This document shows positions 16,001 through 34,000 of a stretch of DNA of 64,000 nucleotides, in pieces. The DNA is taken from assembly GCA_963701855.1 (NCBI GenBank), contig CAVPBK010000002.1, forward strand, positions 1-64,000, in the 5' to 3' direction. This stretch comes from Nitrospirota bacterium (lineage in GTDB: Bacteria; Nitrospirota; Nitrospiria; Nitrospirales; Nitrospiraceae). Each line of letters opens with the position of its first letter. Position 1 is the first letter of the stretch. A program made the position numbers.

Positions 16001-19000
16001 TAGGCCGGTAGTAGCGACGCCCCTTGAGCGACTCCGGAAGGTGCTCCTGCTGCGCCTTGGCCTGGGGATCGTCGTGGACATAGCGATACCCCTTCCCATA
16101 TCCAAGCCCCTTCATCATTGAAGTCACGGCATTCCGTAAATGGAGTGGAACACCGAGATTCCCATGGGCTCTTGTGTCTTCCATTGCCTCAAGAAGTCCA
16201 ACATAAGAAGCATTATCTTTCTGCCTGGTCGCAAGATAGGTCGTCCCTTGGGCCAAATTGATCTGCGCCTCGGGAAGTCCTACAAACTGCACGGCCTGAG
16301 CGACTGCAGCTGCGACCACCAACCCCATCGGATCGGCATTCCCCACATCCTCGGAGGCAAAAATAACCAGGCGCCGGGCGATAAACTTCGGATCCTCCCC
16401 CCCTTCCAACATCCGGGCAAGCCAGTAGAGAGCGCCATCTGGATCGGAGTCTCGCAGACTCTTAATATAAGCAGAAATGACATTGTAATGTTCTTCGCCG
16501 GACTTGTCATAGCGGATCGATTTCTTCATCAGCGCGGTTTCCAGCGCCGTTCCATCGATCAGGCGCACCCCGTCAGGCCCAGCCGGTTGCTGTGTGACCA
16601 CAAAATCCAGTGCCGTCAGGAGCGCCCTCGCATCGCCGTTTCCATAGGCAATCAGTCGTTGCCTGGCATCTGGTAACAGGCTGGCATTCAACTTCCCCAA
16701 CCCGATCGCAGGATCAACGAGCGCCCGATCAAGAATATGCCCCAAAGCCTTGTCCGAAAGAGGCTTGAGCACAATGACCAAGGAGCGAGACAAGAGCGGT
16801 GAAATCACTTCAAATGAGGGATTTTCCGTCGTCGCCCCAACCAAGATGACCGTCCCCCGCTCGACATGAGGCAAAAAGGCATCCTGCTGCGCCTTGTTGA
16901 ACCGATGGATCTCATCGACAAAGAGAATGGTCCGTTGACCGTTGATCAACTGGCGTTGCTCGGCTGTCTTGACGAGGGCACGCAGTTCTGAGACACCCCC
17001 TGTAACCGCCGAGAAGGGCACGAACTGCGCCTTGGTGTGGCGCGCAATGAGATGCGCCAATGTGGTCTTGCCCGATCCGGGCGGCCCCCAGAAGATGACG
17101 GAGGAGAGCTGGTCTGCCTCAATGGCCCGCCGCAAGGGCCGATCCGGCGCTGTGATTTCATCTTGCCCGACAAAGTCCGCAAACTCTCGCGGACGCAGAC
17201 GCTCAGCCAACGGAGCCTCAACGGATGTCTCTCCCTCGGGAGTACCAAATAAATCGGGAGCCTGATCGCGTGAAGTAGTCATCCCAATCCTCAACAACGG
17301 CGTGAATTGTATACGCCGGTCGGCACGATCGCAAACGGACCCTTGTCCTGAGAAGCCTATCCGCCATTGACCGTTCTGCTACGGCAAACGCAGGTAATGG
17401 GGTCATTGCTTGGAGAATGGCGAAAAAGCCCTTCCGGCAAAGTCGTAGCGAGCGAATATCCGAGGCTAAGTTTTCCGGATAATTGAGGACTAGAATGGCA
17501 GAGCTGCAGAAGTAGTAGGGTGTTCAAAACGGTTGTCCAGCGCGGCCGCAGCGAGTGAAGGTCCGAGGCGTACTCTCTGGAGTACGTTGAGGATCTGAAC
17601 GACGCGAGAACAAAGCTGGAAACCGTTTTCAACACCCTGCCTAGTCGGAGTCGCCTACGCTGCCTCGTCGTATGAGCTTCAAAAACTCCAGCCTGGTTTG
17701 CGGCTGACTGCGGAAGGCACCTAACATAGAGCTGCTGACCGCAACGGTATTCTGCTTTTCGACGCCCCGCATCATCATGCAAAGATGTCGCGCTTCGACG
17801 ACCACGCCCACTCCACGCGCGTTGAGCTTGGATTTCAGGGTTTCGGCGATCTGGACGGTCAGCCGTTCCTGGACTTGAAGCCGTCGCGCATAGGTATCCA
17901 CAATGCGCGGAATCTTGCTGAGCCCCACCACTTTCTTATTGGGCAAGTACCCGACATGAACTCTACCGTAGAACGGCAGCAGGTGATGTTCGCACATACT
18001 GAAAAAATCGATGTCCTTCACGATGACCATCTCGTCGTATTCGATCGGGAAGAGGGCGCCGTTCAAAAGCTGATCGATGTTACGGTGATAGCCCTGAGTC
18101 ATAAAGGCAAGGGCCTTGGCCACTCGCTCGGGAGTCTTGAGGAGCCCGTTCCGGCCTGGTTTTTCACCAAGGGCCAGCAGCATCTCTGTGACCAGGGATT
18201 GCAGGACGTTCACATCCGCAGCTCTCCTGCCCCTACTGACGTCTTCAACCTCCTGCCTGCCCCGCCGTTTGACTCCTTGCTTAGCCATGCCGCCCCCCTG
18301 TAAGCGCCGGAACCTGACTCATCGACCCCGCATACTCGAAGTAGTTATCGCGCGTTTCAATTAGTCCGACCTTTTCCAATTGTCCGGCAGGGAGGCACTT
18401 CACTAACAAATCCCAGATTAGCAGCACCAGATTTTCTCCTGTCGTGGTGCGATCGGCAAACTCAGGGTCTAGATTGAGATCGTGATGATCGAATCGCGTG
18501 ATTACTTGTTGTCCCACGGTCCGGTCAAGCCAACCAAGGTCCACGCTTCCACCGGTCTCTGCCGACACCGTGCTCTTTACGGTCACCAACACCACATAGT
18601 TATGGCCGTGTCCATTGGGATTATTGCACTTCCCAAATACAGCCAGGTTTTCATCGGGTGACAGATGATCCGTGTGCAGTCGATGTGCTGCACAGAACCG
18701 ATACCGTCTTGTGACGCTCACCTGTACCATCGTGAATTCAGCTTATATTCCGAGAAAAACAGAGAAGCCAGGACCGGCCGCTGTACTCGGACAATCCTGG
18801 CTCTCTCTGCATTCGTTCGACTGATCAACTTGCGCCACGCAGCGCCAATGTCTTAGGCGCTGAAGGAGCTGCCGCAACCACAGGTGGTCTTCGCTTGCGG
18901 GTTCTTGATCGAGAACCCAGACCCTTGGAGGCTGTCCACGTAATCGACTTCGGCTCCCTGCAAGAGAGGAGCGCTCTGCGAATCCATAATGACCTTGACG

Positions 19001-31000: not shown

Positions 31001-34000
31001 CCAAGGTTCAAGCGAGTCATGACCAGCTGCGCGGTGGCCCCTTTTACGAGCACACGTTTATGTCGTCCGCCTGCACCGGAATGAATCTGCACCGATGAAG
31101 AAGGAATTGATAATCGGCGGGCTAGAAATCGGATCAATTCGTCGTTGGCCGCGCCATCAACCGGTGGAGCGGCCACTCTGATTTTGATCGCATCGCCGTG
31201 AAGGCCCACGCACTCTGTGGAGGAGGCTTTCGGTTGGACGTGAACGGTCAGGATCGCTCCGTCTTCGGTATCCTGCACGATCAGCGCATTCATCCGCGAC
31301 AGGGGACTCCCAGCCATAGGATCAAAAAATGGCCTTCACCAATTCCAGAATGCTGCGCTGCATATCGGGGTCGTCGGTGATCGGGCGGGCAATCGCAACA
31401 TCACAGGCCCGGTCGGTCGCCACGCCTTGCCGAATAAGTGTCCCGGCATAGATCAGCAATCTGGTGCTGACGCCTTCTTCCAAACCATGATTCTTGAGGT
31501 TCCGCACCTTTCCACCGAGCTTCACCAAGCTGGCAGCAAGATCACGGCTGACCCCTGCTTCCCGCTCGACTACGGTGGTTTCGACGTCAGGTGCCGGATA
31601 GTTAAACTCAATCGCCATGAAGCGTTGCTTCGTGCTTTGCTTCAAATCCTTGAGTACGCTCTGGTACCCGGGGTTATAGGAAATCACCAGAAGGAAGTCG
31701 TCGGCCGCTTCGAGAATCTGGCCTTTCTTTTCAATCGGCAGGAAGCGGCGATCATCGCTCAGGGGATGGATGATGACCGTCGTGTCCTTCCGCGCCTCAA
31801 CGATTTCGTCCAAATAGACGATCGCGCCATGCTTCACGCCGAGTGTCAGCGGCCCATCGACCCAGACCGTCTCTTGCCCTTTGAGCAGATACCGCCCCAC
31901 AAGATCGGATGCAGTGAGATCTTCGTGGCAGGCCACCGTGATCAAAGGACGACCAAGCCGGTAGGCCATATGCTGAACAAATCGGGTCTTGCCGCAACCG
32001 GTCGGCCCCTTGAGCATAACCGGCATCTTGCTATTCGCGGCGATCGTGAACAAACCGATCTCGCCACGGACCTCCGCATAAAACGGCTCTCGCTCGATCC
32101 GATACTGTCCAACGTCAACTTCGCGTCCTTGCTGCATCGCTGTGTCTCTCTGGTCTATTTCGTCTAATTAGTTTAGTTGGTTCAGTGCGGCCACGATAAA
32201 CGGAACCGAGGTTGAAGATCAAGCGATGCGGCCTGGATATCAAAACACTGACAAGCAGGCGGCCTTCCGATTTCTCATGCCTGTCTTGGAGGGAGTGGCC
32301 AAGGCTGCCCTTTACTGTGCACATCGAACGAGCACCTTTTGAGTATTTACTCTTTTCTCCTGTCACCCTCTCAGGTCTCGCAGCCAGGGCAATCCCGACT
32401 GCGGCCGTCGAACGAGCACTACTTCATCGTGCGCGTTCCGGGAGCAAAGGGATGCCCTGGCTGTGAGACCGCCCCCCCTGTTAGGCGGCGGCCTTCACAC
32501 TGTCCAGCACTTCGCGCACCTTTTGCGCCAGCGCGGGTGGTGAAAAGGGCTTCGGCAGAAACCCGATCTGACGATTTATACCACCTTGGTCGAACACCGG
32601 ATGATCCGGGTACCCCGACATGTAGAGCACTTTAATCTCTGGCCGGACGGTCAGGATCTTCTCCGCGACCTCAGGCCCGCTCATCTGTGGCATAACGACA
32701 TCCGTCAACAACAGATGGATGGGCCCCATGTATTTTGCGCTGGCGAGGAGGGCTTCGATGCCATGACGCGCCTCCAGCACCGTATAGCCTTGAAGCCGCA
32801 ACGTCTCGTGCACGAGACCGCGAACCGCCGGCTCATCCTCGACCAAAAGAATCGTTTCTCTGCCATGTGCCGGATCAATCGCTTCGACCGCCCCGGTCGG
32901 CCCCAGTACCTCTTGTTCGACCCGTGGAAAGTAGATCCGGAACGTCGTGCCTCGATCGGGAGCACTTTCCACAAAGATGCTCCCTCCGCTCTGCTTGACG
33001 ATGCCATAGACGGTCGAGAGTCCCAGTCCCGTCCCTTTTCCTTTTTCCTTCGTCGTGAAGAACGGCTCGAACAGATGCGACCGGGTCTCAGCATCCATCC
33101 CATGACCGTTATCACGAACCGCCAATAACACATACGACCCCGGCGCCAGCCCCACAGCGTCCAGGCTTGCATCATTCTCAATCGTCACATTCGTGGTTTC
33201 AATCGTCAGGCGCCCGCCCTTGGGCATCGCATCACGCGCATTGACCACCAGGTTCATAATGACCTGCTCGATCTGTCCAGGATCCGCCTTGATGGCGCCA
33301 GCCGACGCATCAAGTTCGGCGCTGAGTTCGACGATATCTTCACCGATGAGGCGCCGCAACATGCCGTCCATATTGGTCACAAGGGCATTGAGATCGAGAA
33401 CTTTCGCCGCGATGAACTGACGTTGGCTGAACGCCAATAATTGACGGGTTAGCCCGGAGGCCCGATCCGCAGCTTTCTTCACCTCCTCCATGTCCTTCCG
33501 CATGGCGTCGGTGGGGCCCAAACGACCCAAGAGCAACTCGCTGTACCCTCGAATCACCGTGAGGAGATTATTGAAATCGTGCGCCATGCCGCCGGCCAAT
33601 CGCCCCACCGCCTCCATCTTCTGCGCCTGTCGCAATTGCGCCTCGGTTTCCCGTAACACCCCTTCCGTTCTAGCCCGCTCGCAAAATTGGCCGATCTTGA
33701 GACCGATGTCTTCCACCATCCTCAACAACTCGTCATCGGGCTGCCTTACCGAATGACTGAAGAGTTCGATGACTCCCTCAATCTCATGCCCTACTAGAAC
33801 AGGAAATCCAACGGCCCCGTGAAGCCCGACTTGTCGAGCCAGCGCTCCGCGAGTGAAATGAGCATCCATCGTGACGTCCGTCACCCAAGCCGACTTGCCG
33901 CTGCTCCAAATACGTCCGGGCAAATCTTCGCCGCGTGTAAACCCACGTTGCAAGGTGTCCAGGGTAAATGGATCGGCCTGCACTGACGGCGCCTTCCACT

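Follow-up and report, generated by a model that had tools for sequence, protein, structure and literature searches.

An orphan MoxR AAA+/VWA pair, near universal in Nitrospirales, and its small third protein

Our analysis of a 64,000-nucleotide window from a Nitrospirales genome (Nitrospirota bacterium, hereafter G000; completeness, 97.14%) supports a genuine, near-universal orphan MoxR AAA+/VWA pair composed of a CbbQ/NorQ-family ATPase and a long VWA adaptor. The conserved unit is this ATPase, the adaptor and a small protein (Table 1). Its gene content, linkage, separate clade, domain anatomy, expression and ATPase-to-adaptor abundance of about 7:1 are direct observations. We put at about one half the probability of our full explanation, in which the unit is a class-wide housekeeping remodeller that grips the 135-aa protein and has a respiratory-type target, the neighbouring NuoF block being incidental.

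Table 1. Features of the module and its surroundings (nucleotide positions in the window; adaptor domains in residues)
Feature	Position	Strand	Basis or remark
CbbQ/NorQ-family MoxR AAA+ ATPase, 271 aa	31322-32137	-	Pfam AAA_5 5e-34, CbbQ_C 1e-32
Ferredoxin-thioredoxin reductase (FTR) catalytic chain	26549-27154	+	PF02943 7.8e-22
Candidate adaptor-unit promoter, sigma-70-like, TTTACA-17-TACAAT	26619-26647	-	consensus match only
Long VWA adaptor	23522-26569	-	1015 aa from first ATG, 1013 from second
Adaptor: helical-repeat solenoid	residues about 1-345		internal repeats and AF2 model
Adaptor: CobT-N/NorD-N-like domain	residues about 346-600		carries H425-E-x-x-H429 and E485
Adaptor: disordered linker	residues about 601-720
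Adaptor: finger and VWA	residues 721-1015		MIDAS N/D833-S835-S837, N912, D940
Unnamed-family protein, 135-136 aa, third gene of module	23068-23478	-	gene order
Malate dehydrogenase (mdh)	22058-22999	-	TIGR01763 above cut-off; neighbour in this order only
Urate_ox_N-family membrane protein	21311-21898	-	PF06181 6.5e-18; variable neighbour
Predicted nuoF-unit promoter, sigma-70-like, TTGACG-18-TATAGT	20951-20980	-	cross-genome conservation
Lone NuoF	19604-20905	-	probable start ATG 20905; outside remodelling module
2Fe-2S ferredoxin (fdx) of nuoF unit	19246-19590	-	PF00111
ErpA-type Fe-S carrier of nuoF unit	18853-19173	-	NF010147 above cut-off; variable

Gene content, phylogeny and linkage

Both partners are single-copy genes in G000. 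The ATPase was found in 61 of 62 genomes of the order and the adaptor, described as an order-wide gene in the initial annotation, in 119 of 121, as well as in 144 of 150 genomes of the class, where families f6, f32 and f40 lack it; a single-copy remodeller retained this widely must therefore serve something central. Their family distributions match in one sample of 201 genomes from the phylum (83 and 84 genomes). The ATPase possesses both the AAA_5 and CbbQ_C domains of the CbbQ/NirQ/NorQ subfamily, and the adaptor, which co-occurs with it and is usually adjacent, carries the C-terminal finger and VWA domains of the second member of such pairs. In six samples of a published N. marina proteome, with orthologs assigned by annotation, length and gene order rather than by sequence, the NSAF ratio of ATPase to adaptor is 7.2 (range, 6.2-8.5), and the ortholog by gene order of the 135-aa protein was also detected. 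This abundance fits a putative 6:1 machine; the stoichiometry of CbbQO is Q6O1 (PMC5437159).

Trees of the ATPase and VWA sequences place the pair in a clade of its own, outside the sampled NorQD and CbbQO systems. In the ATPase tree, NorQ stands outside a 99/97-supported group that unites this clade with CbbQ, Miltoncostaea and corrinoid-cluster rows; a grouping with NorQ is disfavoured at a marginal AU p of 0.0325, with only two bona fide NorQ/NorD references included. The CbbQ/CbbO rows (two references and one orphan) cluster among themselves at 100/98 in both trees, and the VWA tree does not place the adaptor with CbbO. The ATPase is 60-62% identical to ATPases linked to cNOR and 60-63% identical to those linked to Rubisco or carboxysomes. 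By identity and by tree, the ATPase appears no closer to NorQ than to CbbQ.

The ORFs named in the initial annotation lie on the minus strand where it placed them. Positions 18853-32137 do not form one unit as it had supposed, because in G000 four plus-strand ORFs, one of them for the FTR catalytic chain, lie between ATPase and adaptor. Across 20 order-level loci, with 20 kb fetched for each, the adaptor is always followed by the small ORF and mdh, as had been claimed, and in loci L044-L046 the small ORF begins directly at the adaptor stop or overlaps it. We also compared 20 adaptor loci from orders outside Nitrospirales. Here the ATPase is directly upstream of the adaptor in 18, and the 135-aa family is directly downstream in 12 and close by, on the opposite strand, in 2; it was not found in the remaining 6, some of them at contig ends. 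None of these 20 loci has mdh, nuoF, fdx or erpA within the fetched region. FTR, whose true start is probably at about 26714, was rejected as a partner of the machine: its gene is divergent from the adaptor and occurs in 10 of 20 order loci and in none of the 20 from other orders.

A fixed operon running from the adaptor through erpA had been proposed, together with a product of mdh-nuoF-fdx-erpA as the recipient of Fe or Fe-S. Consistent with such a client, the adaptor is adjacent to and on the same strand as nuoF in 18 of 20 order loci, RavA-ViaA, another MoxR/VWA pair, reportedly acts on an Fe-S respiratory complex (PMC10585395), and in a genome without the pair (G195) the best NuoF is only 46% identical. 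However, a TTGACG-18-TATAGT promoter is conserved at 17 of 18 nuoF loci, and a 405-bp gap lies upstream of nuoF. This motif has 6 matches genome-wide, with none upstream of mdh, the small ORF, fdx, erpA or queD. Within the fetched 20 kb, nuoF follows in 18 of 20 order loci, fdx in 17 and erpA in 8 (0/8 in family f2), and the Urate_ox_N membrane gene, omitted from the earlier description, is interposed between mdh and nuoF in 11. Published N. moscoviensis RPKM values (adaptor 354, small ORF 124, mdh 234, nuoF 556, fdx 748, erpA 2282) step up from mdh to nuoF, and motif conservation together with these gene-level values formed the basis for transcript boundaries; RNA runs matched at most 0.18 of the window's words. 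Scans returned chance-level numbers of terminators (14 matches against 14.8 expected) and promoters (7 against 7.9), so only cross-genome conservation of promoters was used; 12 of 20 loci carry a TTTACA-17-TACAAT-type pattern ahead of the adaptor. Judged from these signals, nuoF appears to start its own transcription unit. The two blocks are also separate in family f5, which has mdh-nuoF-erpA without the adaptor, and in f4, where nuoF-fdx-erpA lies away from it. G000 additionally encodes a full nuo operon and an FDH-linked NuoF paralog.

Given the separate nuoF promoter, the patchy occurrence of erpA and the absence of these genes from all other-order loci, the link to mdh-nuoF-fdx-erpA breaks down, and we consider a client among its products improbable. 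Both this cluster and the occurrence of norQ/norD without norBC are already in print. The lone nuoF-fdx-erpA cluster was published for Nitrospira moscoviensis (NITMOv2_4064); the available part of that paper proposes that it serves a 2M-type complex I in ferredoxin reduction and draws no tie to the VWA gene (PMC6606698).

Domain anatomy and proposed mechanism

The adaptor AF2 model has a pLDDT of 79.8, and whole-model fold searches were filled by matches to its VWA domain. This domain matches the NorD VWA structurally (Z 24.0, rmsd 4.8, 256 aligned), with 35-38% identity over finger and VWA in structural alignments; Rea1-MIDAS/UBL structures come next. A CobT profile matches 12 of 28 adaptor family members without reaching its curated cut-off (best E 6.8e-5), and for the middle domain ESM Atlas returns CobT-like clusters (0.91), which we treat as a lead. 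In its N-terminal half, the adaptor aligns with CbbO across model positions 210-444 (E 1.6e-13) but with NorD across positions 347-421 only (E 3e-6).

The MIDAS had been described as intact, and DxSxS is indeed present in 20 of 20 order loci. The remainder departs from the canonical NorD motif (DxSxS-T-D), with Asn replacing Thr in 21/21 order rows and 51/51 further rows; in NorD this residue, T534, is essential, and T534V keeps 2% activity. The first MIDAS Asp of G000 is Asn, as previously noted (AAC codon), a change that none of the 51 relatives parsed from 54 examined loci shares. It may weaken the adaptor copy of G000 itself.

The middle domain bears an HExxH motif and a downstream Glu, a combination that, on a zincin fold, would mark a gluzincin metallopeptidase. 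This raises the possibility of an active zinc peptidase within an ATP-driven processing or degradation machine. HExxH is intact in 19/21 order rows (E485 in 21/21), in 43/43 further loci where visible and in 4/4 corrinoid-cluster adaptors; NorD lacks it, and CbbO has a degenerate form. However, the motif appears dispensable, because Y/F-Q-A-G-x replaces it in 12 of 19 scored other-order adaptors. Moreover, the sole profile match over it is to MJ1213 (E 0.84, not significant), and in NorD and CobT the homologous domain is what docks onto the ATPase. We regard peptidase activity as very improbable.

In the remodeller that we favor, an ATPase hexamer would operate with one long VWA adaptor and the small third protein. 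By analogy with NorQD, CbbQO and CobST, the VWA finger would sit in the ring pore and the CobT-like domain would dock on the ring rim, and on ATP hydrolysis the VWA with its MIDAS would be twisted against a second grip, a role that probably falls here to the extra 345-residue solenoid. We infer that the machine takes hold of the 135-aa protein, which would be the client itself or an assembly factor; in the latter case it would present a respiratory or metallo-enzyme encoded elsewhere and then be released. The final target would be a complex that all members of the class share, most likely one of the respiratory chain, and not NuoF, ferredoxin or ErpA, whose proximity would reflect the order-specific joining of two older gene blocks. 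Metal insertion by the pair would be a putative activity, drawn from analogy.

The 135-aa protein has no Pfam or NCBIfam match. Its predicted model is alpha/beta (pLDDT 85.5), the best Foldseek E value of 0.06 is within noise, and ESM Atlas returns only unnamed Nitrospirota clusters. An RbcS-like fold (Z 4.2-4.7, rmsd 3.4-4.2, 66-79 aligned) ties with unrelated folds and is likewise within noise. Complex prediction with adaptor residues 30-600, a span outside which the VWA domain lies, scored 0.00 and is uninformative either way. We examined the best 80 of 402 distant loci of the family, a set rich in related Rhodothermales in which counts are consequently not independent: cytochrome c oxidase subunit I is nearby in 35, Mrp/ApbC in 27 and Usp/PCP_red in 24, and the ATPase-adaptor machine lies within 7 kb in none. 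The ATPase is present in only 2 of 25 genomes having these distant relatives, and such occurrence of the family apart from the machine counts against our explanation. In family f5, a 135-aa family member unlinked from the pair precedes a c-type cytochrome in 3/3 loci.

Candidate targets

Profile searches of G000 with positive controls detected neither COX1 (0/1) nor RuBisCO_large (0/1), in agreement with the reported lack of cNOR, heme-copper oxidase and RubisCO. Within the order, strong COX1 matches occur in 8 of 121 genomes and RuBisCO_large matches, mostly weak, in 30. A near-universal pair without either known client means that a new client must exist, and this part of the Fe/Fe-S proposal stands. 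The earlier designation of these enzymes as the only known clients is accurate for the NorQ/CbbQ subfamily; reported clients of other MoxR/VWA pairs include fumarate reductase and cobalt chelatase. Two hidden-client candidates were rejected: a Rubisco-like protein, its matches confined to the 30 genomes above, and a membrane protein encoded next to thiD that distantly resembles COX1 (24 weak matches in 121 genomes), for which G000 has no tblastn match and, where synteny would place it, a gap of about 200 bp. Our literature search, which covered mostly papers outside subscription, found no functional study of the pair.

One rival places NorQD-like metal insertion directly into a bd-like oxidase with a proposed haem-copper-type site, leaving the small protein incidental. 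One report presents bd-like_2, which has putative sites for haem b and copper, as the candidate terminal oxidase (PMC6606698), and insertion there would parallel that of FeB into cNOR (PMC13036017). Genes of this type are present in G000 (four besides CydA) and in f4 and f5 genomes (1-2 each), but they are linked to the adaptor in none of the loci examined, G195 has one without any ATPase or adaptor match, and the ATPase does not group with NorQ. We judge this reading rather unlikely.

A quite unlikely rival is Rubisco-activase-like repair, in which the machine would free a soluble rTCA-cycle enzyme of an inhibitor, or reactivate it, with no metal inserted. The grouping of the ATPase with CbbQ, the longer N-terminal match to CbbO and the presence of mdh in every order locus are consistent with it; the separation of adaptor and CbbO in the VWA tree, the absence of mdh from all 20 other-order loci and the scarcity of RuBisCO_large in the order, with no match in G000, argue against it.

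A specific form of our preferred remodeller, which we hold to be unlikely, casts the 135-aa protein as an assembly factor capping a metal enzyme of nitrite-oxidiser respiration, most attractively the haem-copper-like bd-type terminal oxidase. The machine would grip this cap through its Asn-modified MIDAS and remove it to complete assembly, much as Rea1/midasin strips UBL factors from pre-ribosomes. The candidate MIDAS ligand would be the hairpin Glu69 of the 135-aa protein, which is invariant. If true, this would constitute a three-part MoxR system of a type for which we found no description, and it would offer a way to approach the Nitrospira terminal oxidase.

Nitrospira are the most widespread nitrite oxidisers, and which terminal oxidase and which route of ferredoxin reduction they use is still debated (PMC6606698). 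The trio offers a small, purifiable bait for finding the central target. In metagenomes, genes of this kind are routinely annotated as norQ/norD and tallied with those for NO reductase, and 16% of norQ and 13% of norD have been assigned to Nitrospira (10.1101/655316); G000 has no NO reductase.

Comparison with known systems

NorQ/NorD, which inserts FeB into cNOR (PDB 9qh4-9qhg; PMC9976466, PMC13036017), resembles the pair in its CbbQ_C-type ATPase at about 60% identity, finger and VWA, short N-terminal homology and long disordered linker. Differences include the lack of norB/norC in G000, the additional 345-aa solenoid and HExxH of the adaptor, the third small gene, Asn at the Thr534 equivalent and the separate clade. 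The Q-type Rubisco activase CbbQ/CbbO (PMC5437159) shares an ATPase of 60-63% identity on the same side of the ATPase tree, an abundance fitting 6:1 and a longer N-terminal homology, and CbbO has a degenerate HxxxH and EDARVE; it is set apart by the lack of Rubisco in G000, the VWA tree, an adaptor about 250 aa longer and the replacement of the MIDAS Thr. CobS/CobT, the cobaltochelatase motor, has the MoxR/VWA architecture and a CobT-N family domain like that in the middle of the adaptor, but the ATPase falls far below the CobS cut-off (20.8 against 558 bits), and no cobN occurs among the loci examined. The lone nuoF-fdx-erpA cluster of N. moscoviensis has the same genes in the same order as that of G000, with no difference seen.

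Gene layout and occurrence of the ATPase-adaptor pair

A CbbQ/NorQ-family MoxR AAA+ ATPase and a long VWA protein, here termed the adaptor, are each encoded once in the genome under study (G000). The names of homologues assign the window to Nitrospiraceae. COX1 and RuBisCO_large returned no match in this 97.14% complete genome, with positive controls, bearing out the initial annotation's statement that the pair is present without these clients. Besides the nuoF of the window, the genome has one in its full nuo operon and a paralog linked to FDH, which makes three copies.

Features of the locus on contig G000:C2, in the order listed
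Feature	Position	Strand
CbbQ/NorQ-family ATPase	31322-32137	minus
DUF167 gene and two glycine-zipper genes (listed after ATPase)		minus
Four ORFs, one the ferredoxin-thioredoxin reductase (FTR) catalytic chain (between ATPase group and VWA gene)		plus
1015-aa VWA protein (adaptor)	23522-26569	minus
Adaptor codon 833	24069-24071	minus
135-136-aa orphan ORF	23068-23478	minus
mdh, Urate_ox_N membrane gene, nuoF, 2Fe-2S ferredoxin (fdx) and erpA (in this order; queD and folE come next)		minus
TAA-N4-TTGA motif	~21007-21019	minus

The adaptor's VWA part was found in 119 of 121 genomes of the order Nitrospirales and 55 of 61 of the genus, and its middle domain in 144 of 150 genomes of the class Nitrospiria (15 of 18 families). 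In one 201-genome sample of the phylum, the ATPase occurred in 83 genomes and the adaptor in 84, with an identical family pattern. Because strong COX1 matches occur in only 8 of the 121 order genomes (32 with weak matches included) and RuBisCO_large matches in 30, the known clients do not account for this distribution. The pair is a real, class-wide and uncharacterised variant of the CbbQO/NorQD kind. Two Nitrospira MAGs with norD and norQ and without norB or norC appear in the available part of one report (PMC13032477), and the accessible text of PMC3578206 makes no mention of the pair; no functional study was found in the literature covered, in which subscription papers are few and bioRxiv supplements are not included. 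G000 lacks a ~430-aa membrane protein that weakly resembles COX1, has conserved histidines and neighbours thiD in 14/14 fetched loci (L196-L209).

A conserved trio and a separable downstream block

Adaptor, orphan (which lacks a Pfam or NCBIfam match) and mdh are constant in all 20 order loci, picked across genera, as had been claimed initially. Downstream, 18 of these loci have nuoF, 17 have fdx and 8 have erpA (0/8 in family f2); the ATPase falls inside the fetched region in 8. The motif TTGAC[GT]-N16-18-TATAGT precedes nuoF in 17 of 18 loci, a count that shows conservation and is no independent test, since the pattern was derived from these very loci; it precedes none of mdh, orphan, fdx, erpA or queD in the loci compared and has 6 matches across G000. 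These counts and the separate nuoF motif contradict the fixed operon, from the norD-like gene through erpA, that had been proposed. A TAA-N4-TTGA motif, resembling an IHF site, sits inside a longer conserved stretch some 40 bp ahead of the -35 box of nuoF in 12 of 18 loci.

In family f5, mdh-nuoF-erpA is one block apart from the ATPase-adaptor genes. Family f4 has adaptor-orphan-mdh in one place and nuoF-fdx-erpA-queD in another; two older blocks were therefore probably joined in this order. N. moscoviensis RPKM values are 354 (adaptor), 124 (orphan), 234 (mdh), 366 (membrane gene), 556 (nuoF), 748 (fdx) and 2282 (erpA) in the available part of PMC6606698. High expression of the nuoF-ferredoxin-erpA cluster is already reported in that paper, which suggests that the cluster may serve the 2M-type complex I.

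Among 20 adaptor loci from the class outside the order, 18 have the ATPase gene immediately before the adaptor. An orphan-family member comes immediately after the adaptor in 12 (intergenic distance from about -4 to 569 bp) and is ~3 kb upstream of it on the opposite strand in 2; none was found in the other 6, some of which are at contig ends. None of the 20 fetched regions contains mdh, nuoF, fdx, erpA, queD or FTR, so the earlier placement of the client within mdh-nuoF-fdx-erpA is not supported, and NuoF or the ferredoxin is an improbable client. The conserved unit is the trio of ATPase, adaptor and orphan, which offers a testable lead.

The orphan family extends beyond this machine (402 genome matches). 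Neither the ATPase nor the adaptor lies within 7 kb of any of the best 80 of the 402 (Rhodothermales, Methylomirabilota, Calditrichia, Latescibacterota, Poribacteria and Tectomicrobia), and the ATPase is present in only 2 of 25 tested genomes of those distant hits; this spread counts against an obligate role. Of these 80, 35 have cytochrome c oxidase subunit I as a neighbour, 27 have Mrp/ApbC and 24 have a Usp/PCP_red protein; the f5 member, unlinked from the ATPase-adaptor pair, precedes a c-type cytochrome gene. The orphan model (pLDDT 85.5) gave no significant fold match in structure searches; RbcS matches (Z 4.2-4.7) tied with unrelated folds. Family members from many phyla (L081-L160) have 125-135 aa, the motif FGGGKFKxNFY and no Pfam match. 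By gene id, nxrA and nxrB of the N. marina genome (IMG ids 2597406883-6892) are placed 7-9 positions upstream of the VWA gene.

Adaptor architecture and phylogenetic placement

In the AF2 model, the adaptor comprises an all-helical region with internal repeats (to ~345), an alpha/beta domain (~345 to ~600), a linker modelled with low confidence, and a finger+VWA domain that matches NorD (Z 24.0, rmsd 4.8, 256 aligned). The middle domain is CobT-N-like in 12 of 28 members (best E 6.8e-5) and weakly matches the NorD N-terminus; the corresponding CobT and NorD domains dock on the ATPase ring (available sections of PMC13036017; bioRxiv 10.64898/2026.10.09.757910).

Two motifs differ from NorD, the MIDAS Thr and HExxH...E. 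In NorD the former is T534, and T534V keeps 2% cNOR activity (PMC9976466, accessible text), whereas the adaptor has Asn in 21/21 order rows and in 51/51 loci parsed out of 54, two partly overlapping sets, as well as in those adaptors of other orders that were parsed. Of the 21 order rows, 19 keep HExxH...E intact; its loss from 12 of the 19 rows scored in other orders indicates, at the sequence level, that it is not the core function of the adaptor and makes a zinc peptidase highly improbable. G000 itself has Asn at the first MIDAS Asp (codon 833), as noted initially, against Asp in 51/51 parsed relatives, a difference that may come from an assembly error or a defect of this strain.

The 29-row ATPase tree joins the order into a single group (100/99) beside f5 (87/87). 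The 99/97 branch that contains this group also takes in CbbQ, corrinoid-cluster and Miltoncostaea rows and leaves NorQ outside. Forcing the order ATPases to group with NorQ gave an AU p of 0.0325, marginal because the test was named only after the tree was seen. In the VWA tree (23 rows), order and f5 join at 99/97 and fall within neither NorD nor CbbO; the deep branching is unresolved. The references for both trees were a small set of two NorQD loci and two CbbQO loci. Given this placement, and identity of the order ATPase to CbbQ as high as to NorQ, the initial name NorQ/NorD is best read as a label by similarity.

A sister clade (L071-L074; G225, G220, G203, G179) has long HExxH-bearing adaptors and an ATPase within corrinoid methyltransferase clusters (two URO-D-family genes, a CobW/HypB/UreG GTPase, DUF2284, a B12-binding protein and a ferredoxin-domain gene), which points to a methyltransferase or corrinoid as the client there. 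Shorter pairs near DsrC-like genes in other Nitrospirota (L075, L078) form a separate clade. The closest plasmid ATPase (65%; L210, Miltoncostaea plasmid NZ_CP064358.1) precedes a long-type adaptor that the annotation splits into two ORFs, and adjoins thiolase and AMP-binding genes.

A candidate remodelling machine

We favour, with a probability of about 0.5, a remodeller in which the ATPase and adaptor would act as a 6:1 twisting motor, the 135-aa protein would be its direct partner, and the target would be a class-wide, probably respiratory complex encoded elsewhere, at its assembly. Direct metal insertion into a bd-like oxidase seems unlikely, and repair of an rTCA enzyme slightly more so. 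For the favoured remodeller, the available N. marina proteome (PMC8115632; orthologs assigned by annotation, length and gene order) detects the ATPase, a 1031-aa VWA protein, a 136-aa protein, Mdh and NuoF, with NSAF ratios to the adaptor of 4.6 for the orphan and 7.2 (6.2-8.5) for the ATPase. The latter fits the Q6O1 stoichiometry of CbbQO (PMC5437159, available part), and the twisting mechanism would be carried over from NorQD, CbbQO and CobST.
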